NCBI GenBank assembly: GCA_048939245.1
Contig: JBHLPR010000041.1
Location: 1-18,477, forward strand
Source of the DNA: Promethearchaeota archaeon
GTDB taxonomy: Archaea > Asgardarchaeota > Hermodarchaeia > Hermodarchaeales > Hermodarchaeaceae
Direction of reading: 5' to 3'
Length of the DNA stretch: 18,477 nt
Position 1 is the stretch's first letter, and each line of letters opens with the position of its first letter. A model generated the notes under the pieces. That model worked only from the letters and a program-made list of their open reading frames with translations. It had not been told where the DNA came from and did not search any database. Both the position numbers and the translations under genes were made by a program. This document shows, one piece after another, positions 251 through 16,467 of this stretch.

Positions 251-493
251 TTACTTCTTGCGTTTGTCTTTTCCTTTCTTACCGAGCCACCATTCAAGAT
301 AATCGCGGCGACGTTGGGACTTTTCTCTTTCGTCATCCTTTTCTCGAAAGGAAGAACGTTGTTCGTCCCAAAGCCGATCGAGCTCTGCACGAGATACGGC
401 GAGTCCACAGCGTTGACATACTTGACGGCCGCTCTTCGGATCGAAGCGCATTTTTCCAGCGCATTCGGGGCATGTTGTCAAATAATCCACCAA
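251..493 (-). CDS. Small Zn-ribbon protein of unknown function
   Basis: CPEC...CQRC Zn ribbon, charged helix, YLEWWL motif and basic tail. The start may be TTG at 481 (GGTGG SD-like motif upstream) rather than 493. Confidence 0.8.
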   Translation of the reverse strand: MVDYLTTCPECAGKMRFDPKSGRQVCQRCGLAVSRAELDRLWDEQRSSFREKDDEREKSQRRRDYLEWWLGKKGKDKRKK

Positions 494-574
494 TTAACTT
501 CTTTCAACTGTACCTCAATAACGTTCTTCTTAAATCATGCCCTGTTGGTATTCTTACTCAATTTTGATTCTTTC

Positions 575-2518
575 TTACTCAACAAGCATTGCTAACCAGT
601 TTTCAACCTCTCGTCGCTTATAACCAGATGCAGGGGCTGCAAGCACGGCCCAATTAATTGTGTCTTTTTGTCTTCTAGTTTTTGCATACCAAGTAACTGA
701 TACACGTCCTGAATCAAAGAGACTAATTTCCTTTACTCGTTTTGTCATCTTAATTCCTATACTCTTCGCTAGTCTCACTTCATCATCTAGGAGTTTACAC
801 GGATTGTCTTTAATTAAATCCCTTAAGAGCCTTGCACGTTGACGGACAACAGGACTGTCTTTAAGTTCAGTCAGCCGCCATAATTTTCCACCTAATAATA
901 CGTGTTTTTGGTAATCGCCACCCTTACCATAAGATACTTCTTTACCCCATCTGCGAACGAATTCTTTTAGTTCGGGTGAGATTCTTGATACAAATTCATA
1001 TTTCTTAGAAAGCGATCCACCATCTAACACTTTGGCCCTATTGATTGAAAACCATGCCCGTGATTGTTCTGTGAAAAAACACCCATCCTCAGGTATTACT
1101 TCTTGAAGGTATGCAACTTTAGTTCTCATATTGCCTTTCCGGATAAATTCAGGTAATCTGAACTCATGATGCAAGTGTTTGTCACCAATAGGAACCCCCC
1201 ATTTTGTTAAAATTCGACCAACAACGCTTGAGAAGACTAACCTATTTTGAGAAGTTTCATGGCAATGAATTTCACCTAAATGATTTCGAAACAAATTTCT
1301 TACATATTGTCTTCTCTCTTTATCACGTTCTGCATAGATAAGCTGGCTTCTCTGTATATGACCGTCACTAGCAATGATAGCATAAGCACGAGCACGAAAT
1401 TCACCTAATTTTTCACCCCTAGGAAATAGTGGATTAAATATACCACCACTATCATTTCGGGTTTTTCCAATCTTCATGATTAAAGGCTGGATGTTTACAA
1501 GCGATACGTTTAGTGAATCAAGAATGAAATGAAGATGTTCCCCTTTCAGATAGGATAGCTTATGTTCGATTTCTGTTGGGCGGGATTTAGTTTTTTCTTT
1601 GTTTTCAGAAACATCGGACATTTGTGTGATAAGCTTGCTGAATCCACGATTGGGTTTCGAAGTTGATTTATCTAAATCAAGGTTTTTCCTTGAAGCTTCG
1701 ACAAGTTTGATTGACGTCGCTGGGTTTTTGAAAAAGAAGAGCTCTTGATTTAAGATATTTAGCCAGTTATCTGAAGAGATATTTCGTCGCCAAAAGTAGA
1801 GTGCGGAATTGGTTATTCCAATTTGAAGCTTGTTATTCGCCTGTTGTGATATTTCAAGTCTAGCATTAATTTGATTTTCAATATCTTTTCGATTTAACTC
1901 AATATTTTTAGATATTTCCCGTAGCCAATTGGGACCTGTTCGCTGATATGGGAATAGTGTAGCGAAAATTACTTTGGGTGGATTCCTAATCGATGAATAA
2001 AGCCTTTCAAGCGTTTTCGAATAATCTGTCAGTTCGAATTCCTTATCAGGCTCATTAAGTGGTTTCAAATAGCGATGAACATCGGATGGATCTATGCAAC
2101 GTCGCTTTGCTTCGAGAGACAAGCTTCTTTCCCATTTTCGCCGTGCGGTTTCATGGATTTTCAAACTTCTTACGAGTTTTGGTTCGCTTTTGTCTCTCAC
2201 CCAATCTCTGACAGTTCCTGCGTTTATACCAGATCTACGAGAAATTTCATTACCTGATAGGTGGTCTAGTTGTGAACATCTCTGAAGTTTCTTGATTATC
2301 ACGAACTTTTCAGCCATTTGGCGATGTTCTTCAAAATCACCTCTTTCTCTGAAATAAGGATGACGTTCAATTAAAGCACTAAGAGAAGCAAGATTAGCAA
2401 TTTCTATCCTTGGTTCAGAGATTTCTTGCTCTTTTCCTACTTTGCTCTCACATTCTATTATTCGAGAGGAATTAGCAATTTTCAGATAGTCATTTGTTTT
2501 GGTAATTTCCGTCTCCAC
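575..2518 (-). CDS. Free-standing HTH + double-motif LAGLIDADG (DOD-type) endonuclease-like protein with no intein splicing domain
   Basis: HTH LSGNEISRRSGINAGTVRDWV (aa 87-107). Motif 1 YAIIASDGHI (D385). Block-D-like WGVPIGDK...RLPEFI (K447). Motif 2 AYLQEVIPEDGCF (D478). Block-H-like KLLDDEVRLAKSIGI. No N-terminal Cys/Ser Hint block and no C-terminal HN. Confidence 0.72.
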   Translation of the reverse strand: METEITKTNDYLKIANSSRIIECESKVGKEQEISEPRIEIANLASLSALIERHPYFRERGDFEEHRQMAEKFVIIKKLQRCSQLDHLSGNEISRRSGINAGTVRDWVRDKSEPKLVRSLKIHETARRKWERSLSLEAKRRCIDPSDVHRYLKPLNEPDKEFELTDYSKTLERLYSSIRNPPKVIFATLFPYQRTGPNWLREISKNIELNRKDIENQINARLEISQQANNKLQIGITNSALYFWRRNISSDNWLNILNQELFFFKNPATSIKLVEASRKNLDLDKSTSKPNRGFSKLITQMSDVSENKEKTKSRPTEIEHKLSYLKGEHLHFILDSLNVSLVNIQPLIMKIGKTRNDSGGIFNPLFPRGEKLGEFRARAYAIIASDGHIQRSQLIYAERDKERRQYVRNLFRNHLGEIHCHETSQNRLVFSSVVGRILTKWGVPIGDKHLHHEFRLPEFIRKGNMRTKVAYLQEVIPEDGCFFTEQSRAWFSINRAKVLDGGSLSKKYEFVSRISPELKEFVRRWGKEVSYGKGGDYQKHVLLGGKLWRLTELKDSPVVRQRARLLRDLIKDNPCKLLDDEVRLAKSIGIKMTKRVKEISLFDSGRVSVTWYAKTRRQKDTINWAVLAAPASGYKRREVENWLAMLVE

Positions 2519-2640
2519 TCCAGAAAAAACTTCAGTCCAATTTCCTTATCACTCAGTTGTTCAGTGTCATCCGTCTCTTTTTCATCATACTCCGGGGATT
2601 CGCGGAATTCAAAAGACCTACTGTCCCTCCCTTTGATCAT
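2482..2640 (-). other. 52-aa acidic ORF overlapping the endonuclease start, one base out of frame; possible frameshifted N-terminus of that gene
   Basis: ATG at 2640: MIKGRDSRSFEFRESPEYDEKETDDTEQLSDKEIGLKFFLEWRRKLPKQMTI*. It crosses a T6 run (2524-2529); one extra base fuses it to the 647-aa frame. Confidence 0.4.
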
Positions 2641-2723
2641 TGTTTGCAGCGCGGAATTTGATTTGTTTTTATGCCTTTCGGATTTCGTTCTATTCTCACA
2701 AAAGATGTATTGAAGGAACCTAG

Positions 2724-2739
2724 AAAAACGTACAAAAAA
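2724..2739 (-). terminator. Probable oligo-T archaeal terminator of glmS
   Basis: Minus strand TTTTTTGTACGTTTTT about 35 nt after the glmS stop. Confidence 0.45.
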
Positions 2740-2774
2740 GCAGTGTATGCCCTATATGACGCGTAAGTCCTGGG

Positions 2775-4607
2775 TTAAAGAACCGTTACGGCTTTGGCTA
2801 GATTTCGTGGTTGGTCTGGGTTATGTCCTCGCAAAATTGCTGCATAATATGCGAGTAGTTGGAGTGGTACAACATAACTGATTGGTGAGAAGTAAATCGA
2901 AGGGAGCACAGGTAATGTGATTGCTTGATCGCTGAGATTGATAAGTTTCTCATCTGCCTCTGAGCACACAGAGATGATTTGCGCTCCTCTTGCCTTCATT
3001 TCCATGACATTACCTTCCAAATGCCGACGTGTGTTATCAGATGGCGCAACAAAAACAATGGGGAAACCTGGCTCAACAAGGGCGATTGGTCCATGTTTGG
3101 ATTCGCCTGCAGGATAACCTTCTGCATGAACATACGCAATTTCTTTTATTTTCAGTGCCCCTTCCATTGCCGTAGATGTGCTTATACCTCGTCCAAGAAA
3201 GAAAAAGTTAGATTTGTTAAGATGTTCTTGGGCCGTTGCCTTAATCATGCCTTCTTGGTTCCGAATGACTGATTGGATAAGTTGCGGAAATTGGTTTAAA
3301 GATAGTTGCAAGTCCTCAGTTTCCTTCTTGGTCTGAGCACCAGTCATTTTGCCTAATGAGATGGATATTGATGCAAGGGTGGCAAGTTGAGTGGCAAAAG
3401 TCTTTGTTGCCGCAACACCAATTTCAGGACCAGCCTGTGTATAAAGAACTGAATCAGCAATCCGTGTAATTGAACTTCCTACTGTATTAGTGATGGCTAA
3501 TATTGTAGCGCCTTGGTTCTTGAGGTGTTTGACAGCGTGGAGGGTATCAATGGTTTCTCCAGATTGTGTAACAGCTAACACTGCTGTGTCAGCACCCAAG
3601 CTTTCTGCTACAGCATCAGAACCCTCTGATGCTATTATTCCATGAACTAGGCGATTTGCGATATTCGAAAACATGTACTTGGCAGCTAATGTGGCATGAA
3701 AAGATGTTCCAGCAGCAACGGTTAGAACATTCGTGTGGTTGTGAAGAATCTCAGTGAAGTTTTCAAGATCATCTTTTCGAATTCGAAGAGTATCAGTAAG
3801 CGCACGGGGTTGCTCATGTATTTCCTTTAACATAAAATGCGGGTACCCGCCTTTCTGAGCCATGTCAATTGTCCATTTGACGACAAGTGGTTCCCGAATT
3901 GGAAGTTTTGTCAGAGAACCTGACTCATCTATTCGGCTTATGAGCACCCCATTGGAGGTTAGATGGACAAGTTCATTATCTTCGATAATGATAGTCTTTC
4001 GTGTCATGGGTAGGAATGCTGGGACGTCTGAGGCGCAATAGACCCCTCGAGACCCTAGACCAACTACCAAGGGGCTTTCTTTACGGGTACATACTAGTTC
4101 CTTTCTTGTAGATTCTAACACCACAAGTGCATAGCTTCCCTCTAATTGTGGAATTATCTGAGCTACAGCGTCACCAAGATGATTTGTGTGTTTAAGAGCG
4201 TCTTCGATTAGATGAGGGATGACTTCAGTATCAGTTTGAGACCGGAATTGATGACCCTTCGCTAAAAGCTGTTCACGTAATTCTTGGTAATTCTCAATGA
4301 TTCCATTATGAACAACAGCAATATGATTATTGCAATCTGTGTGAGGGTGCGCGTTCACTTTGGATGGAGAACCGTGAGTAGCCCACCGTGTATGACCGAT
4401 TCCTATCGTTCCGGGTAAATTGTCAAAATTTAAGCGGTGGTGTATCTCGTCTATTTTCCCCTTATCTTTCTTTATAAAGAGAGTTCCATTAGATACAGTA
4501 GCGATTCCGCTGGAATCATAACCACGATATTCTAGCCGTTTCAATGCTTGACGCAAGATGGAGGCAATATTTCCTTTTAGATGAATTGCGCCAATAATTC
4601 CACACAA
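2775..4607 (-). CDS. glmS: Glutamine--fructose-6-phosphate aminotransferase (isomerizing)
   Basis: MCGIIG Ntn-hydrolase start, LEYRGYDSSG, GHTRWATHG, HNGIIEN, TQSGET, GESKHGPIAL, C-terminal PRNLAKAVTVL. 610 aa, TTG start. Confidence 0.98.
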   Translation of the reverse strand: MCGIIGAIHLKGNIASILRQALKRLEYRGYDSSGIATVSNGTLFIKKDKGKIDEIHHRLNFDNLPGTIGIGHTRWATHGSPSKVNAHPHTDCNNHIAVVHNGIIENYQELREQLLAKGHQFRSQTDTEVIPHLIEDALKHTNHLGDAVAQIIPQLEGSYALVVLESTRKELVCTRKESPLVVGLGSRGVYCASDVPAFLPMTRKTIIIEDNELVHLTSNGVLISRIDESGSLTKLPIREPLVVKWTIDMAQKGGYPHFMLKEIHEQPRALTDTLRIRKDDLENFTEILHNHTNVLTVAAGTSFHATLAAKYMFSNIANRLVHGIIASEGSDAVAESLGADTAVLAVTQSGETIDTLHAVKHLKNQGATILAITNTVGSSITRIADSVLYTQAGPEIGVAATKTFATQLATLASISISLGKMTGAQTKKETEDLQLSLNQFPQLIQSVIRNQEGMIKATAQEHLNKSNFFFLGRGISTSTAMEGALKIKEIAYVHAEGYPAGESKHGPIALVEPGFPIVFVAPSDNTRRHLEGNVMEMKARGAQIISVCSEADEKLINLSDQAITLPVLPSIYFSPISYVVPLQLLAYYAAILRGHNPDQPRNLAKAVTVL

Positions 4608-6651: not shown

Positions 6652-7896
6652 GTGGATGGCTTTCTCATCTTTGGTATTGGAAAAGTATATTGTCTTGATG
6701 AGCACTTTTCAATAATTTCTGAAGCAGATTTAGGAGAAACCGTTGACGAGATTATACTAGTTTTTCATCGAATTCGCCGGGGAGTTGCGGATTCTCTTCT
6801 TGCAGAATTTTTTGGTACCTTAGATGAAAAAGCGGTTAATCGTATTTATGTTGAGTCACAAGTGGTTGCTGAGGATTTTTCGAGATTATATAATGTAAAA
6901 GCACTGCAATATGAGGATATAAGGCTGTGGCGCAAATTACGCCAAGATTTCCTTGATAGTGCAATTCCCTCTAAAGATGAGAAACGACTTCATGAGATTG
7001 CATTGGGAGTTTCCCGAATAGCAGTCCGAGAGGCGGCTGGACAAAATGATCAATTAATTATCCAAGCGATGAATACCTTAGACGATGTTGAAAAAGTCCA
7101 AAATTTGATGGTTTCTCGACTTCGGGAGTGGTATGGTTTGCATTTCCCTGAAGCCGCAAACGCCATTGAGAATGGGCAGACTTTAGCACGGATTGTCACA
7201 GAAGGAGGTTCTAGAAGAGATATTGAAGAGAATCCCAACTTATTGAAGTTACTAACGGACTCGTCTGTGAAAGCTGAACTGCTTGAGCAGTCAATCGGAG
7301 CAGAAATTCTTGAATCAGATATGGTAATGGTTCAATCATTAGCCCGTCAAATCCTTGATCTTTATACATTTCGAGAGCAACTTGAGAGATATTTAGACGA
7401 ATCAATGCATGTTCTCGCTCCAAACCTACGAGCATTGATTGGTCCTGTAATAGGAGCGCGTCTAATTGGATTAGCAGGAGGAATAGAGAAACTTGCCCGT
7501 TATCCAGCAAGTACTATCCAAGTACTCGGTGCTGAACAAGCACTCTTTCGAGCTTTAAAGACCGGAGCAAAACCTCCGAAACATGGTGCTATTTTCCAAC
7601 ACACCTTAGTCCATTCAGCGCCTTGGTGGCAACGCGGAAAAATCGCTCGAATACTTGCAGGAAAAATCGCTATTGCGGCACGAATTGATTTCTACTCAGG
7701 TCAATATGTAGCCGATGAGTTGAAACAAACTGTTCTATCACGGGTTGCTGAGGTTAAACGAAAATATCCGACCGCTCCGAAGCGACCACCATCAAAACCA
7801 CAAAAGCGACCTACCAAACGAAAACATTTCAGAAAAAAATCTAAATCACACGCACCGAAAAAGCGTCGAACCGATACGGAGAGGAAATCGTCTTGA
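6652..7896 (+). CDS. nop5: Box C/D sRNP core protein Nop5 (Nop56/58)
   Basis: RLREWYGLHFPE, APNLRALIGPVIGARLI, PASTIQVLGAEQALF, PPKHGAIFQH, RGKIARILAGKIAIAARID and a basic C-terminal tail. Overlaps fibrillarin by 4 nt. Confidence 0.97.
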   Translation: MDGFLIFGIGKVYCLDEHFSIISEADLGETVDEIILVFHRIRRGVADSLLAEFFGTLDEKAVNRIYVESQVVAEDFSRLYNVKALQYEDIRLWRKLRQDFLDSAIPSKDEKRLHEIALGVSRIAVREAAGQNDQLIIQAMNTLDDVEKVQNLMVSRLREWYGLHFPEAANAIENGQTLARIVTEGGSRRDIEENPNLLKLLTDSSVKAELLEQSIGAEILESDMVMVQSLARQILDLYTFREQLERYLDESMHVLAPNLRALIGPVIGARLIGLAGGIEKLARYPASTIQVLGAEQALFRALKTGAKPPKHGAIFQHTLVHSAPWWQRGKIARILAGKIAIAARIDFYSGQYVADELKQTVLSRVAEVKRKYPTAPKRPPSKPQKRPTKRKHFRKKSKSHAPKKRRTDTERKSS

Positions 7897-8588
7897 TTGA
7901 AATTAGAGAAGATAAAAAAAGACCTAGCCTTTTTTGGGCGCACCTAGATACAGGAGCAAAACGTCCTGCAACAAAGAATCTTACTCCAGGTAAAGCAGTA
8001 TACAATGAACAGATGGTAACTGTAAAATCCCACGAGTACCGAATTTGGGATCCACATAGAAGCAAGCTATCAGCAGCTCTACTTCGAGGATTAACTGCAT
8101 ATGCTTTTACTCCTAAGAGTTCAGTCCTTTATTTAGGTGCTTCTTCAGGTACCACTGCTAGCCATGTTTCGGACCTCCTAAATGCAGGTGGTCACGTATA
8201 CTGTGTTGAATTTGCTCCGCGGGTGATGCGGGATTTAGTACAGGTTTCTGCAACTCGAAAGAATATGATTCCGATTATGGCAGACGCTAGATATCCTGAA
8301 TCCTATCTTCAAATACCTGAATTGGTAGAGGTGTTGTATCAAGATGTGGCGCAACCAAACCAGGCGAAGATATTAGTAGATAATGCGCGGCGTTTTCTTC
8401 GACCAGGTGGAACTGCGTATGTTGCGATTAAAGCTCGGAGCATCGATGTTACCGAGAAGCCGTCCCGAATATTTGATCGTGAAGAAAAGACATTAGCAAA
8501 AGCAGGATTTACTGTAGTGGATCGGATATCTTTAGATCCTTACTCCGCCGATCACGTTTTTCTTAGCGCAGTGTTTGGTGAAGTGTAG
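7893..8588 (+). CDS. flpA: Fibrillarin-like rRNA/tRNA 2'-O-methyltransferase
   Basis: ATKNLTPGKAVYNE, YRIWDPHRSKLSAA, VLYLGASSGTTASHVSD, VEFAPR, YQDVAQPNQ, IKARSID. No GAR domain. Confidence 0.97.
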   Translation: MIEIREDKKRPSLFWAHLDTGAKRPATKNLTPGKAVYNEQMVTVKSHEYRIWDPHRSKLSAALLRGLTAYAFTPKSSVLYLGASSGTTASHVSDLLNAGGHVYCVEFAPRVMRDLVQVSATRKNMIPIMADARYPESYLQIPELVEVLYQDVAQPNQAKILVDNARRFLRPGGTAYVAIKARSIDVTEKPSRIFDREEKTLAKAGFTVVDRISLDPYSADHVFLSAVFGEV

Positions 8589-8590
8589 AA

Positions 8591-9025
8591 ATGAAGAAAT
8601 ATTCGGGTTTCCTTTCCGGGCTTGAACGAGAAATTGCCCAAATTAATGATCATATGCCTCGCACAAAGAAGTCGCTTTTGAAACTGCTTAGCGGGCGGTC
8701 ACCAAGCTTTGTCACACGAGATGGACAAAAGAGTTCAGTTCGATTGGAGGAATTAGAAGAAATTGCAGAGATTATTCCGTCTGAATATCATAGCCAGATT
8801 ATGTTACCGTTCATACTTCTACGAAGAACCTCGTTAGGACCTGGTGCACACACTATAGGTGGTTCAAAACTCGAACAATTCACGGTGTTACGTATTTTGG
8901 GAAAAATCGATTATCCTTTTCAAATGTGGCGTTCAGCACGTTTACCCCGAATTATTTATTCGCCTGAAGTGGGTCTCTTAAGGCAGAAATTACCCACTAC
9001 CCTTACAATAGGATTTGGCAAATAA
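8591..9025 (+). CDS. DUF61 (UPF0216) family protein
   Basis: INDHMPRTKKSLLKLL...VTRDG...EELE...LPFIL pattern, in the usual position after fibrillarin. Confidence 0.8.
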   Translation: MKKYSGFLSGLEREIAQINDHMPRTKKSLLKLLSGRSPSFVTRDGQKSSVRLEELEEIAEIIPSEYHSQIMLPFILLRRTSLGPGAHTIGGSKLEQFTVLRILGKIDYPFQMWRSARLPRIIYSPEVGLLRQKLPTTLTIGFGK

Positions 9026-9026
9026 T

Positions 9027-9986
9027 ATGCAGACGAAACAAAGATATCTGGATGAGGTGCGGGACGTTCTAGATTCTGCGGCACGAGAACACGCTACAAC
9101 TTTTACTCCAGAATATTGTTTTGATAGTATCATCGATGAAGGTTATGCACGGATTGTAATTAAAGCCAGCCAAACAATTGACAATGTTGAAGTACATGTC
9201 CGAGAAGAATTGTATAAAATCTGTTCTATTCTTCGATGTACCCCACTGATTATAGGAGAACGTACGCGGAAACGCCCCCTCCAAGATGGTGTGGTTCATA
9301 CTCGCGGATCGATTTCTGCAATTACACTTGAGACTCTGCGCCGAATTTTAGAAGAACACGCTTTTCCTTTTCTTCTAGCGAAAAAGGGCGGGGTTTACGT
9401 TATTATGGACGGAGAAAAAATGAAGAACGCACGAGAAGCAGGGGGTCATTCTCGTGGAGATATTGCAGAAAGAATGGGACTCTCAAGACGTGCTATATAC
9501 GAATATGAAAGAGGAACAATGAACCCCACGATTGATGTAGCCCTTCGTTTAGAGGAGCTTCTTGACACAACATTAATTGAACCGCTGAATCTATTTGGTA
9601 CCCTTAACACATCAAATAGAAGTAAGGTTACGCAAGAGCCTCTAAATAGACAAACTAAATTCACAAAAACAGCAATAGAAGTATTTTCTCGTTTAGGTTT
9701 CAATTCAACCCTGGCCAATGATGCGCCTTTTAACTTGCTCAACTCCCTTCGTAAGCATGTCATTTTAAGTTACTTGAAACAGCGCCTTGAACATCTTGAT
9801 GAAGAACGAATTGATTTTCTAGCAAAACTAGCGGATGTTCTCAATGAGAATCCGGTGATAGTTGCCTCAGAATCAACAACTGTCGATGCAATCAATGGCA
9901 TACCCGTTGTCTATCTCAAAGAGCTCATATCCCTTCATAAACCGAGTGAGTTCATTACGCTTATTCAAAGTCGGCGAGGAGCTTGA
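9027..9986 (+). CDS. Archaeal XRE/Cro-type HTH transcriptional regulator (COG1395-like)
   Basis: PLIIGERTRKRPLQDGVVHTR, KGGVYVIMDG, HTH SRGDIAERMGLSRRAIYEYERG, APFN. ATG at 9027 directly follows the DUF61 stop and is preferred over TTG at 9015. Confidence 0.88.
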   Translation: MQTKQRYLDEVRDVLDSAAREHATTFTPEYCFDSIIDEGYARIVIKASQTIDNVEVHVREELYKICSILRCTPLIIGERTRKRPLQDGVVHTRGSISAITLETLRRILEEHAFPFLLAKKGGVYVIMDGEKMKNAREAGGHSRGDIAERMGLSRRAIYEYERGTMNPTIDVALRLEELLDTTLIEPLNLFGTLNTSNRSKVTQEPLNRQTKFTKTAIEVFSRLGFNSTLANDAPFNLLNSLRKHVILSYLKQRLEHLDEERIDFLAKLADVLNENPVIVASESTTVDAINGIPVVYLKELISLHKPSEFITLIQSRRGA

Positions 9987-9987
9987 T

Positions 9988-11160
9988 GTGTACGAGGAAG
10001 ACAAGGAAGGAGCCATCAGCTTTCTCCGTCCACCCTTACAAAAAGTTCCAACAACAGACATGAAGGTCTTTTTCAATCCCAAATCTGAACTTAATCGAGA
10101 TTTAACCATGGTGGCACTCCAAGTATTTATTTCCAAATATGAGAAGACAGGAACCCGAGTGTGCACCCCCTTTGCTGGAACAGGTGTCCGCCCAATTCGT
10201 ATGGCAAAAGAGGTAACAGGCATCGAAAAAGTTATTGTGGGAGATTCGAATCCTGAAGCAGTCGAGCTTATTAGAAGAAACCGGGACATGAACGATGTTA
10301 AAGACGTGCTGGAAATTTTCCATAGCGAAGCCAATCATTTACTAAACCAGTATAGATCGTTCCATGAAAAATTTGATGTCATCGATATCGATCCATTTGG
10401 TTCTCCCAGAGAATTTTTTGATTCAGCTATTCGAGCGCTTAGGCCTCCAGCATTACTTTGTCTTACAGCCACAGATATGCCTGTCTTGGTGGGTATTCGA
10501 CGACGTGCATGTATTAAGAGATATGCAGCTGTGCCATTGAAAACAGAGTATTCGCATGAGCTAGCAGTACGGATATTGCTTGGATGTGTTATAAGAGAAG
10601 CAGTGTCCCAAAATATCGGATTATTCCCATTACTATCATTCTCAGTTGACCATTATATTCGGTTGTATCTTTTAGCTATAGAAGGAGACAAGAATTCGTG
10701 GAAGGCAGTGTCACAACTAGGATTCATAATTCATTGTAATCAATGTGGAGAAAGGACAGTTGCTAAAGGTTTGCTGCCGAGCATCAGAGGTTGCAAGCAG
10801 TGTAAATCGGAAAGAGAACAATTAGGTGGTCCTCTTTGGGTTGGAAAGCTTGGAGATAAATCATTCATAAAAAAAATGTGCCAGCATCTTGATAATTTTA
10901 GACTTGGAAACAAACGTAGAGCCTTGTCCTTGTTAAACACGATACAAGATGAAATAGACGGTCCAGCGACTTATTATGATCTCCATCAATTAGCAGATAA
11001 ATTGAATATACCAGTTCCACCTTTTCGGGATGTAATTGGTAGATTACGCCAAGCAGGAGCATTCTGCGTTCGAACCCATTATTCGCCACATGCGATACGA
11101 ACATCTGCTACAGAACAAACCCTCTCAGAGATCCTTTTAGCGCTTACAACGGAGGGTTGA
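9988..11160 (+). CDS. trm1: tRNA (guanine-26,N2)-dimethyltransferase Trm1
   Basis: VFFNPKSELNRDL, FAGTGVRPIR, DVIDIDPFGSP, LCLTATD, HELAVRILL, CxxC...CxxC, GGPLWVG, RTH. Start reassigned to GTG at 9988 (SD GAGGAG at 9976-9981). Confidence 0.95.
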   Translation: MYEEDKEGAISFLRPPLQKVPTTDMKVFFNPKSELNRDLTMVALQVFISKYEKTGTRVCTPFAGTGVRPIRMAKEVTGIEKVIVGDSNPEAVELIRRNRDMNDVKDVLEIFHSEANHLLNQYRSFHEKFDVIDIDPFGSPREFFDSAIRALRPPALLCLTATDMPVLVGIRRRACIKRYAAVPLKTEYSHELAVRILLGCVIREAVSQNIGLFPLLSFSVDHYIRLYLLAIEGDKNSWKAVSQLGFIIHCNQCGERTVAKGLLPSIRGCKQCKSEREQLGGPLWVGKLGDKSFIKKMCQHLDNFRLGNKRRALSLLNTIQDEIDGPATYYDLHQLADKLNIPVPPFRDVIGRLRQAGAFCVRTHYSPHAIRTSATEQTLSEILLALTTEG

Positions 11161-12203: not shown

Positions 12204-13133
12204 TTAGAGAGGAACTTCCAAATCCAATTTCTCCACAAGTTCTTTGTAACGATTACGTACTGTCACTTCGGTGACTCGGGCTACAGCCGCAACTTCACGT
12301 TGCGTTCTTCGTGAATTAGCCAGAACACTAGCAACATAGATAGCGGCAGCAGCAACACCTGTTGGTCCTCGACCACTTGTCAGTCCCTTGTTAGCAGCCA
12401 TCTTCAGGATTTGAATTGCCTGAGCTTGAACTTCACCAAGTAATTTCAGTTCACTGATAAATCTTGGAACATAGTCTATTGGAGAAGTGGGAGGAATGGA
12501 AAGACGCAATTCGCGAGCGATAAAACGATAACTTCGTCCAATCTCTTTTTTACCAACCCTAGAAACTTCAGCTACTTCATCAAGCGTTCGAGGAATACGA
12601 GATTGGCGACATGCAGCATATAGAGCAGCAGCCGCAACTCCTTCAATCGAACGCCCTCGAATCAAGCGTTGTTCGACGGCTCTACGGTATAGCATTGCAG
12701 CGATTTCGCGAACGTTTCGTGGAAGACCAAGACTTGATGCCATCCGATCAAGTTCGGAAAGGGCATATGCGAGATTTCGTTCTGTGGCATCGGACACACG
12801 GATTCTTCGTTGCCATTTTCGTAAACGATAGATTTGTGCCCTACGTTTTGGAGCCAAGTCTTTTCCATAACTATCACGATTTCGCCAATCAATCATGGTT
12901 GAAAGGCCCTTATCGTGAATAGTAAAGGTGAGTGGCGCCCCAACACGCGCACGTTTATCACGTTGTTCTTGATCGAAAGCCCTCCATTCAGGACCTTCAT
13001 CGATAATCCGATCTGTGAGCACGAGTCCACAATTCATGCAAATAATTTCTGCTCTTGAATAGTCTTTCACTAGACGGGTAGTACCACAGTCAGGACAATG
13101 AGCGAGCGCAGAAGCACTTACTTCTTTCGTCGT
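12204..13133 (-). CDS. tfb: Transcription initiation factor IIB (TFB); true start lies upstream of the track call, probably ACG at 13133
   Basis: The frame extends upstream of 13070 to complete the Zn ribbon [32 protein letters not shown]-reader, two cyclin repeats, [12 protein letters not shown]. Gene identity is secure; the start codon is inferred. Confidence 0.95.
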
Positions 13134-13579: not shown

Positions 13580-13882
13580 TTACTTCTTACCAACTGCTTT
13601 CAAAGTTTTCATGATTTTCGCAATTTCTTTTAGAATTTGAGTTTTTGTCTGATTTTCAGGCTTTTTAATGAGGACCACTCCAGATGTTCCCCACCAACTT
13701 GCCGGATATCGAGCCTTTGATTCGACAGTGAACTCCAAACCAAGGCGTTGAGCGGCTTTGGTAATCATTGAAGTTGATACAGCTGTCAATGCGAGTTTTT
13801 TAGGAACACGCCGACCCGCTTGACGACTTCGATTAGCTTCAAAATATGCTGGATAAATATAATAATTACCTGATTTCCGCAT
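13580..13882 (-). CDS. srp19: Signal recognition particle protein SRP19
   Basis: IYPAYFEANRSRQAGRRVPKKLA, AAQRLGL, YPASWW, KTQILKEIA. Confidence 0.95.
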   Translation of the reverse strand: MRKSGNYYIYPAYFEANRSRQAGRRVPKKLALTAVSTSMITKAAQRLGLEFTVESKARYPASWWGTSGVVLIKKPENQTKTQILKEIAKIMKTLKAVGKK

Positions 13883-13981
13883 TCTAGACCGCCTTCATAG
13901 CCTCCATTAGTTACACAAAAGCTTTGCTTTTCTTGTAAGTGAGCAAGGTTGAAAAGTTTTGAGCCAACGGGTTGGGATGTC

Positions 13982-14868: not shown

Positions 14869-15900
14869 ATGTCAAAACACAACGCACTTGTTGAACTTTC
14901 GCATGGAGCTGGTGGTCGTGCCATGGCTGAGTTTTTAGCAGATGTTATTTTTCCCCATTTCAAACTCAACCGAGTTGAAACTGGAATTGGATTACCTGAG
15001 GCTGATGATGGGGCAACGATTCCTTTAGACAAAATTGAGCTTGTAGTCTCTACCGATAGCCACACAGTGTCACCATTATTCTTTCCTGGTGGTGACATCG
15101 GGAGTCTTGCAGCGGCAGGCACCATTAATGATGTGGCGATGATGGGAGCTCAACCTAAAGCTATGACAAGTGCTTTGGTAATTGAAGAGGGATTCCCTAT
15201 CGATTCACTTCACAAGATCTTATCATCAATATCTTCAACGGCCACAGAGGATCAGGTCGCAGTTATAGCAGGAGACACAAAGGTGATTCCGAAAGGAGGG
15301 CTTGATCAGATGATAATTTGTACAACTGGATTCGGTTTAGTAGAAAAGGGGAAGGTCATCACAGATAGTGGTGTGAAAGTCGGTGATAAACTAATTATCA
15401 CGGGGACCATTGGTGACCATGGCATAGCCTTACTAGCAAGTCGTGAAGGTCTTTCCTTTGAAACCGACTTGAAATCAGACGTTGCGCCATTATGGTCATT
15501 GGTTCGGGAGGCGTTAAGGATTGGTGGAATTCATGCGATGAAAGATCCTACACGGGGAGGTCTTTCAGTAACTTTGAATGAGTGTGCAAAGAAATCTGGT
15601 GTTAGCTTGGAAATCGAAGAGGATAAGCTGCCTTTTCAACGAGAGGTGCTGGCAGCAAGTCAGATGCTCGGACTTGACCCACTTCAAGTTACCTGTGAAG
15701 GAAAGGCTCTTATCGCAGTGGAGCCTGACAAGGCTGAAGAAGTTCTTAAAGTCATCCGTGGCACAAAATACGGGAAAAAAGCGGAAATCATTGGAGAAGC
15801 AAAGGAAGAGCGTTCAGGCTTGGTATTAATGAAGACCGAAGTGGGTGGAACTCGAATTATCCAGCATCCTTGGGCAGAAGCAATACCTCGGGTCTGTTAG
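14869..15900 (+). CDS. hypE: Hydrogenase maturation carbamoyl dehydratase HypE
   Basis: LSHGAGG, STDSHTVSPLFFPGGDIGSLAAAGTINDVAM, GDTKV, SDVAPL, MKDPTRGG, CEGK, and C-terminal PRVC with the catalytic terminal Cys. ATG at 14869 follows AGGTGG. Confidence 0.97.
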   Translation: MSKHNALVELSHGAGGRAMAEFLADVIFPHFKLNRVETGIGLPEADDGATIPLDKIELVVSTDSHTVSPLFFPGGDIGSLAAAGTINDVAMMGAQPKAMTSALVIEEGFPIDSLHKILSSISSTATEDQVAVIAGDTKVIPKGGLDQMIICTTGFGLVEKGKVITDSGVKVGDKLIITGTIGDHGIALLASREGLSFETDLKSDVAPLWSLVREALRIGGIHAMKDPTRGGLSVTLNECAKKSGVSLEIEEDKLPFQREVLAASQMLGLDPLQVTCEGKALIAVEPDKAEEVLKVIRGTKYGKKAEIIGEAKEERSGLVLMKTEVGGTRIIQHPWAEAIPRVC

Positions 15901-15913
15901 CTCAAAAACTGAA

Positions 15914-16396
15914 CTATAATTGGTGTGATAATAGTGATGCAGTTTCACCGAAAATCTGTTCGATATGCTGGTTAAGATCAGGTGCACAAATCGAAGCCGG
16001 TTGAGGTTTGACCAGTCGGTCACCATATTTTGTGAGGAAGAGTTTCACGATGCGTTTTGCGATTGTTTCGATGAGTATCGGGCTAGAGGTTTTTGAACTA
16101 CTAATTACTAAAAGTCCATTTCGGAGTGGGTAGAATGTGTATCTGCAGGGTTCTGTTGTAATCGTTTCGATCTGTCCATCTGTGACTTCCTTAGCAAAAA
16201 GTGAAAGGGCGATGAAGAATCCTCCAAGAATCGCAGGATCGGGATGATTCTTGTGTGTAGTGAATATACGATAATAGAAAGGGCATCCGGATTCCTTGAG
16301 AATAAAAAGTGAATATAGTCCTTCAGGAGGACTAGGCTGGGAAACCGTATTGCTTTGGGAAGATTGGGGTAAGGATGATTGAGGGACGCGAGCCAC
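15914..16396 (-). CDS. Stand-alone longin-fold protein (sedlin/sybindin/Mon1-like), Asgard-type
   Basis: LYSLFILKESGCPFYYRIF (beta-beta hairpin), DPAILGGFFIALSLFAKEV (helix), three short strands, then helix IAKRIVKLFLTKYG: the longin beta2-alpha-beta3-alpha2 pattern. Confidence 0.75.
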   Translation of the reverse strand: MARVPQSSLPQSSQSNTVSQPSPPEGLYSLFILKESGCPFYYRIFTTHKNHPDPAILGGFFIALSLFAKEVTDGQIETITTEPCRYTFYPLRNGLLVISSSKTSSPILIETIAKRIVKLFLTKYGDRLVKPQPASICAPDLNQHIEQIFGETASLLSHQL

Positions 16397-16441
16397 ACTA
16401 GGAGCCTCAGATTATTTTAGCTTCCCTTGAGTTTGTAGAAG

Positions 16442-16467
16442 CAAATATAAACTAACAAAGTTAGTTT
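16442..16467 (-). promoter_or_regulatory. Longin-gene TATA box with an abutting palindrome
   Basis: Minus strand TTTATATT (16444-16451) overlapped by AAACTAAC-AAA-GTTAGTTT (16449-16467). Confidence 0.55.

Follow-up and report, generated by a model that had tools for sequence, protein, structure and literature searches.

The stretch of DNA analyzed here, 18,477 nucleotides (nt) of contig JBHLPR010000041.1 from the Hermodarchaeia (assembly GCA_048939245.1) and referred to below as the window, contains a gene, P0001, that is probably a free-standing homing endonuclease gene: a selfish element that would spread by break-induced gene conversion, with cleavage being inferred. An earlier examination of the nucleotide sequence without database searches (the sequence-only reading) had proposed a self-propagating intergenic homing element, and this proposal gains support from empty alleles at the same site, occupation in three host backgrounds, a co-conversion tract, decayed copies, and a patchily distributed, site-specific gene family. 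A protein identical to P0001 is called in the NCBI assembly GCA_016550425.1, which Eme et al. 2023 (PMC10307638) class within Hermodarchaeia of the Asgard archaea, and in an independent Logan contig.

P0001 is preceded on the same strand by Elp3 and glmS, and followed by a small TFIIB-type Zn-ribbon gene, cdc6/orc1, and GINS; an NCBI contig (L060) carries the complete Cdc6 and GINS genes. The position first assigned to the gene, between glmS and the cdc6 locus, therefore holds, with the correction that its immediate 3' neighbor is the Zn-ribbon gene and that cdc6 and GINS lie beyond. Comparisons were made between the source genome of the window (G000) and other Asgard genomes (further G numbers), with the term family genomes denoting the 19 members of its GTDB family. 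The order Nop56–Elp3–glmS–Zn-ribbon–cdc6 is maintained in 19/19 of these genomes, as is the Zn-ribbon gene itself. Despite this constant synteny, the junction between glmS and the Zn-ribbon gene is empty in 16 of the 18 other family genomes, where the glmS stop and the Zn-ribbon start are separated by 55–115 nt (55–65 nt within the genus). Empty alleles of the genus carry a conserved motif resembling a TFIIB recognition element and TATA box, ACAAAGAGTTAAAGCAC, immediately after the glmS stop. In G000 this spacer is replaced by 2281 nt (494–2774) that hold a single gene. An alignment of 21 alleles shows no counterpart of the glmS-proximal part of the insert in the empty alleles, to which it aligns locally no better than do shuffled sequences, and the spacer on the Zn-ribbon side carries a different TATA-like box, GATTTAAGAAG (526–536), in place of the ancestral ACAAAGAGTTAAAGCAC. 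The G+C content of the P0001 open reading frame (ORF), and of the whole insert with its two spacers, is 0.38, versus 0.43 for glmS, Elp3, and the remaining window, in agreement with spot counts that had suggested a value below that of glmS.

Two other accounts of the insert were considered and rejected. First, an insertion sequence or transposon would be expected to leave terminal inverted repeats or a target-site duplication, and no inverted or direct repeats bracket the insert at 494–2774. Second, a swapped glmS 3' end is not supported: TVL terminates the product of every one of the 19 glmS genes, and divergence over the final 240 nt of the G000 gene does not exceed expectation. No stranded pieces of either flanking gene, glmS (3' end) or Zn-ribbon (5' end), were found inside the insert or the window. 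The same spacer contains an unrelated insertion in G010 (locus L043, G010:C126, reverse strand), where ~1.4 kb encoding a TnpB/IS605-OrfB-type protein with RuvC-like and Zn-finger motifs is placed between the glmS stop, which it adjoins, and the ancestral TATA-like motif.

The alleles identified at this site comprise 16 empty, two intact occupied, one remnant, and one with the unrelated insertion sequence. The second intact allele is on a metagenome contig (L035), on which the closest homologue of P0001 (P0003, 45% identity) lies directly upstream of the same Zn-ribbon gene and cdc6 leader; synonymous divergence between the two endonuclease genes is saturated. The remnant, on contig C130 of G004, retains residues 136–253 and the last few codons, followed by the element-type spacer and the Zn-ribbon gene. 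Occupation does not follow host phylogeny. In the glmS tree, G000 is nested (support 100/99) within a set of five genomes, none of them occupied. By its Zn-ribbon gene, C130 falls with the empty G001 and G008, and L035 with G005, G002, and G006, also all empty. By these groupings, the occupied alleles belong to three host backgrounds, each with empty nearest relatives. Because the empty-spacer motif is common to both genera and missing in the occupied alleles, emptiness is ancestral, with no fewer than three gains or transfers of the element. Close relatives thus differ in whether this one site is occupied or empty, and the locus does not exhibit the universal, syntenic, vertical inheritance that had been named as an outcome refuting mobility but not domestication.

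The flank of the insert provides a second signature of homing. In an alignment of 480 nt beginning at the Zn-ribbon start codon, six derived bases are common to the two occupied alleles of the genus within the initial 36 nt, versus three within the following 440 (Fisher p=1.6e-5). Past this tract, starting at nt 39, 18 sites unite C130 with G001 and G008, against G000. A shared 36-nt tract that gives way to host-specific sequence is best read as a co-conversion tract. At codon 10 of the Zn-ribbon gene, Thr is present in 14/14 alleles of the genus that lack the nuclease gene, and Lys, Lys, and Val are present in the three occupied alleles. The altered codons 2–3 and 10–12 are inferred to be the best candidates for a recognition or resistance site. 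The limits of the tract imply that the transferable unit extends from the glmS stop to approximately nt 36 of the Zn-ribbon gene (window ~446–2774); the alignments thus show that P0001, both adjoining spacers, and the initial 36 nt of the Zn-ribbon gene make up one 2.3-kb unit replacing an ancestral 55–65-nt spacer. Lateral spread discordant with the host and flanking co-conversion are therefore both seen, in few alleles and all on contigs of metagenomes or metagenome-assembled genomes (MAGs).

The predicted product has the fold of a LAGLIDADG endonuclease. An AlphaFold2 model of P0001 built from eight sequences (predicted local distance difference test, pLDDT, 85; predicted template modeling score, pTM, 0.80) places residues ~366–647 in two tandem alpha-beta-beta-alpha-beta-beta-alpha halves packed through both LAGLIDADG helices, an arrangement recovered by VIA and Foldseek alike. 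VIA aligns 158–186 residues of this region to the TliVMA intein endonuclease, PI-PfuI, I-Tsp061I, I-DmoI, and WhiA with Z scores of 15–17.5 and root-mean-square deviations (rmsd) of 2.2–3.4 Å, and LAGLIDADG proteins make up almost all of the top 50 PDB matches found by Foldseek. On this model, residues 366–647 are a monomeric double-LAGLIDADG nuclease fold. The sequence-only reading had staked its case on such a fold and had pointed to PI-SceI, I-DmoI, and WhiA as the structures to compare; the fold is predicted, and I-DmoI and WhiA are among its matches. Conservation was counted over 156 representatives of the endonuclease family, with totals differing by position. Position 385 is Asp in 140/141 and position 478 is Asp in 112 and Glu in 35 (Asp or Glu in 147/147), such that an acidic residue closes each LAGLIDADG helix; position 447 is Lys in 131 and Arg in 16 (147/148), and Gly479 is conserved in 140/147. 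The retention of D385, D478, and K447, noted initially from motifs, is thus borne out by helix-end positions in the model and by conservation across the family. Conservation of these acidic and basic positions argues that the active site is under selection, unlike that of WhiA, and the endonuclease is apparently intact.

Sequence models perform less well than structure with this protein. No Pfam LAGLIDADG family matches P0001 at E≤1, PDB sequences yield nothing by phmmer or by a 60-member family profile at E≤1, and scans of Pfam, NCBIfam, PHROGs, and PADLOC identify no significant family; a weak NCBIfam match (E 0.002) is to the intein-bearing part of an RFC model, and a PHROG LAGLIDADG match is weaker still (E 0.3). 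Membership in the LAGLIDADG group therefore rests on fold and motifs. I-DmoI and I-Tsp061I, which are encoded in rRNA introns, and PI-PfuI and TliVMA, which are parts of inteins, share the double fold with P0001 (Z 15.9–17.5, rmsd 2.2–3.4 Å) and the acidic residue closing each LAGLIDADG helix. However, these enzymes are embedded in their introns and inteins and are ~170–200 residues long, whereas P0001 is free-standing, is overlooked by Pfam and PDB profiles, and has both a 330-residue N-terminal region of DNA-binding type and a second-half insert of ~75–90 residues. The insert (residues 501–574) lies between beta-2 and alpha-2 of the second half, and the nuclease domain comprises 282 residues versus ~190 in I-DmoI, so the original estimate of roughly 90 extra residues is about right.

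The N-terminal region appears to consist of DNA-binding-type modules. A helix-turn-helix (HTH) had been proposed here, and the evidence for it is weak although concordant: Pfam HTH_3, HTH_23, and HTH_28 match residues 71–122 below the cut-off (E 0.06–0.2), and the fold of residues ~64–122 weakly resembles the homeodomain, TrpR, and the IstA N-terminus (Z ~3.8). When folded alone with 52 homologues, the N-terminal 327 residues form a confident model (pLDDT 93, pTM 0.90), in which the middle region contains a winged-helix-like module (~160–250) and an XRE/Cro-like HTH module (~264–350), both with weak sub-matches (Z 3.5–4.9). No whole-domain match was found for these 327 residues (Z<5 throughout VIA, and none with E<0.05 in Foldseek), which does not prove a new fold. 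Neither P0001 nor the N-terminal model yields a Hint-like fold in Foldseek or VIA, no host exons were found, and intein structures are matched via their endonuclease domains only. These results agree with the absence of Hint blocks and host exons inferred at the outset, and an intein is rejected, since the ORF, located between glmS and the Zn-ribbon gene, is free-standing with a separate start and stop and lacks a Hint domain.

Degeneration of the element is also evident. In four public sediment and mangrove metagenome runs, contigs span the whole stretch, both junctions included, at ~93–97% identity. Two runs of one mangrove study contain, beside the intact gene, an allele with a 1257-nt deletion, and a divergent haplotype of similar depth carries 17 changed codons in the insert region 501–574, nine of which change the amino acid. 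The C130 remnant, the deletion allele, and fragments and stop-containing copies across the endonuclease family together make invasion, decay, and deletion all visible.

The distribution of the endonuclease family is likewise as expected of mobile genes. A nuclease-domain profile detects the family in 58/251 sampled Asgard genomes, with one to eight matches in each, nearly all within two GTDB families (14/18 and 39/60). A search of genome contigs for related loci with the single protein P0001 found no relative. G000 itself carries three paralogs, sixty relatives have between 0 and 11 matches each, and many of these are fragments, contain in-frame stops, or are at contig ends. An exhaustive search recovered 293 clusters, among which many members are 900–1600 residues long and N-terminal extensions are frequent, reaching a total of 1607 residues and containing further HTH units. 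In most close relatives, tens of bases at most separate the 3' end of the nuclease gene from that of a convergently oriented [NiFe]-hydrogenase large-subunit gene (group-4 or group-3). In a maximum-likelihood tree, the Zn-ribbon-linked pair, seven group-4-linked genes, and the group-3-linked genes form separate, well-supported clades. That clades match insertion sites indicates that site specificity is inherited within clades, as expected of homing enzymes; homologues are thus patchy, multi-copy, and tied to particular sites, the three properties for which a survey had been recommended. G003 and G014 carry orthologs of the hydrogenase-linked G000 paralog, for which the ratios of nonsynonymous to synonymous divergence (dN/dS) are 0.38 and 0.26, versus 0.08 and 0.22 for the hydrogenase. 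By these ratios, the paralog is evolving under purifying selection.

Homing of P0001 would proceed as follows. The product, predicted to be a monomeric double-LAGLIDADG nuclease behind three DNA-binding-type modules (HTH, winged-helix-like, and XRE-like HTH), would cut the empty allele, most likely at or close to the beginning of the Zn-ribbon gene, in the vicinity of codon 10, a region proposed as the cut site because it is altered in every occupied allele. The break would be repaired by homologous recombination off an occupied allele, copying in the nuclease gene together with a replacement TATA-like promoter for the Zn-ribbon–cdc6–GINS genes and flanking codons that resist cleavage. Spread by this route would require related Hermodarchaeia to exchange DNA, either from cell to cell or among chromosome copies. 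The proposed process has its closest described counterpart in, and corresponds to, the ‘intronless homing’ of the T-even phages, in which the seg and mob genes are free-standing homing endonucleases (Edgell et al. 2010, PMC2988022). Similar to P0001, seg and mob are stand-alone genes in spacers between conserved genes, are polymorphic for presence or absence among relatives, and co-convert flanking markers, and their cleavage site is thought to be in a neighboring gene and not at the insertion point. However, the seg and mob enzymes are of the GIY-YIG or HNH type and reside in phages, whereas P0001 is a LAGLIDADG protein with three N-terminal DNA-binding-type modules, resides on an archaeal chromosome, and has putative cleavage activity and mobility.

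A second comparison is offered by the WHO elements and HO of yeasts (Coughlan et al. 2020, PMC7282813). Like P0001, these encode a free-standing LAGLIDADG-type nuclease fused to an extra DNA-binding domain, home beside a conserved housekeeping gene, supply a replacement and presumably resistant gene end, and form clusters with decayed copies. WHO proteins differ in retaining intein (Hint) remnants and a zinc finger, whereas P0001 has no Hint fold and its extra domains are of HTH type. It is conceivable, although unlikely, that P0001 is a pared-down representative, without cargo, of a WHO-type system that builds islands without an integrase, in which the nuclease serves mainly to insert cargo genes and stack them where conserved genes end, the gene end is replaced each time, and the P0001 copy has lost its cargo or never had any. 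The hydrogenase-linked paralogs favor this possibility. On contig C74 of G000 (locus L028, G000:C74:16000–34000), the stop of a paralog at 8293–10509 (minus strand) is 18 nt away from that of a group-4 [NiFe]-hydrogenase large-subunit gene at 7070–8275 (plus strand), and four stranded copies of the last 20–48 codons of the hydrogenase gene (12781–12840, 13765–13908, 15447–15560, and 16329–16451) follow within the downstream 8 kb, with one to three genes between them. Similar hydrogenase tails are present in G003 and G008. The array looks like repeated WHO-like gene-end replacement with cargo, the stacked stranded tails being the WHO pattern, and both the adjacency of most close relatives to hydrogenase 3' ends and the length of many family members fit the same scheme. 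The P0001 locus departs from it: the insert is a single gene without cargo, the replaced part is the 5' end and promoter of the neighbor, and neither glmS nor the Zn-ribbon gene has left a stranded piece. A WHO-type reading extends the homing reading and does not oppose it.

Several observations weigh against homing as the explanation for the present copy. The known occupied alleles number only three, each on a contig of a MAG or metagenome, and the co-conversion signal is confined to 36 nt of such contigs, with no corresponding signal at the glmS 3' end. G004 has a second, empty allele on another contig in addition to the remnant, and the two may reflect a strain mixture. The deletion allele exceeds the intact gene in depth in both runs in which they coexist (21.5 vs 10.3 and 14.4 vs 3.2). 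The four runs contain only occupied or internally deleted forms; no same-species empty allele, with glmS joined directly to the Zn-ribbon gene, was found among their contigs, although contigs drop rare variants and such an allele may yet exist. Finally, the P0001 copy has the longest branch of its clade and an atypical amino-acid composition. The long branch, the composition, and the abundance of the deletion allele suggest that this copy may be past its active phase.

An improbable extension of these observations is that P0001 is a relic or a passenger, which arrived by ordinary homologous exchange of a variable spacer or via another element, and whose nuclease is inactive or irrelevant to its spread. 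The long terminal branch, the predominance of the deletion allele in two runs, and the TnpB-type insertion in G010, which indicates that the spacer tolerates insertions, are all compatible with such an origin. It is countered by the catalytic and structural signature residues, all of which are intact in P0001 and across the family, by a full-length ORF with a confident model, and by the occurrence of a monophyletic endonuclease clade at the same site in three host backgrounds, which random insertion does not predict.

The other alternative raised initially, an immobile, domesticated DNA-binding regulator resembling WhiA (a bacterial sporulation and cell-division regulator) or a factor associated with the origin or cdc6, is highly improbable: WhiA likewise combines a LAGLIDADG fold with an HTH domain and scores level with the nucleases (Z 14–17, reaching 17), and P0001 is directly upstream of Zn-ribbon–cdc6–GINS, but WhiA lacks the catalytic acids that are conserved here, has its HTH at the C-terminus and not the N-terminus, and is inherited vertically, whereas P0001 is missing from the locus in 16/18 other family genomes and belongs to a patchy, multi-copy family with pseudogenes.

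Table 1. Features of the P0001 locus, in coordinates of the window
Feature	Position	Strand	Basis or remarks
Free-standing HTH and double-LAGLIDADG endonuclease gene (P0001)	575..2518	-	647 residues, GTG start
N-terminal helix-turn-helix module, residues ~64–122	2153..2329	-	Weak Pfam HTH and weak fold matches
Folded middle region, residues ~160–350	1469..2041	-	Separate N-terminal model; weak sub-matches
Predicted monomeric double-LAGLIDADG nuclease domain, residues 366–647	578..1423	-	VIA and Foldseek
Codon D385, acidic end of LAGLIDADG helix 1 (ASDG; helix 368–385)	1364..1366	-	Model and family alignment
Codon K447 (GDK), conserved basic residue	1178..1180	-	Family alignment
Codon D478, acidic end of LAGLIDADG helix 2 (PEDG; helix 464–478)	1085..1087	-	Model and family alignment
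Extra helices and strands in second LAGLIDADG half, residues ~501–574	797..1018	-	Model secondary structure
Segment absent from deletion allele (codons 1–376 and 129 nt upstream)	1391..2647	.	Contig joint 1390/2648 in X2 and X6
Element-borne spacer, glmS stop to endonuclease start	2519..2774	-	Without counterpart in empty alleles
Element-borne spacer, endonuclease stop to Zn-ribbon gene	494..574	-	Common to G004:C130 remnant
Putative co-converted flank, first 36 nt of Zn-ribbon gene	446..481	-	Derived codons 2–3 and 10–12 shared by occupied alleles
glmS, left host flank	2775..4607	-	Pfam SIS and GATase domains; congeners 77–84% identical
Small TFIIB-type Zn-ribbon gene, right host flank	251..493, likely start TTG at 481	-	Pfam Zn_Ribbon_TF
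cdc6/orc1 5' end, leaves contig edge	1..122	-	tblastn to congeners

Further features were observed near family members and elsewhere in the window. The third paralog of G000 (locus L029, G000:C100) occupies 8033–10096 on the minus strand and is flanked by 33-nt direct repeats (94% identical) at 7940–7972 and 10131–10163. A 38-nt copy of a tRNA-Val 3' half (89% identical) is located at 7864–7901, ~130 nt past the stop of the paralog, and the intact tRNA-Val is at 7066–7142. In G004 (locus L012, G004:C119), the stop side of a family member adjoins the 5' part of a uvrB-like gene, truncated and convergently oriented, in which stop codons come after the Walker A region; this may be another target or a disrupted gene. 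Within the window, ~40 nt between the Zn-ribbon stop and the cdc6 start (181–220; GTTTTACGTGAGTGTGGAAAATCCTTTTATGG...) are nearly invariant in the genus and in the metagenome contig amid variable surroundings, and are a candidate cdc6 promoter or operator, or an element similar to an origin-recognition box. A second nuclease-plus-HTH gene of the window, at 9015–9986, encodes 319–323 residues with PDDEXK_19 nuclease and HTH_3 domains (Pfam, NCBI contig) and lies amid Nop56–fibrillarin–Trm genes.

Archaeal LAGLIDADG endonucleases have been described as passengers of rRNA introns and inteins (review PMC3943268), and a literature search found no paper on free-standing LAGLIDADG genes in Asgard archaea. 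The P0001 site, with occupied, empty, remnant, and deletion alleles and a mapped co-conversion boundary, represents a natural experiment of unusual clarity. It points to exchange and recombination of chromosomal DNA among Hermodarchaeia, a matter relevant to their population biology. The endonuclease family comprises ~300 sequence clusters that current domain libraries miss, with clades tied to distinct conserved targets, and could supply modular meganucleases that combine HTH modules with a LAGLIDADG core. The hydrogenase tail arrays suggest a broader, tentative possibility, which is that the HTH–LAGLIDADG family constitutes a general, integrase-free route of gene movement in Asgard archaea, in which homing would, besides spreading the nuclease gene, replace the ends of conserved genes and stack cargo behind them. 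If true, this would imply frequent DNA exchange and recombination between Asgard cells.

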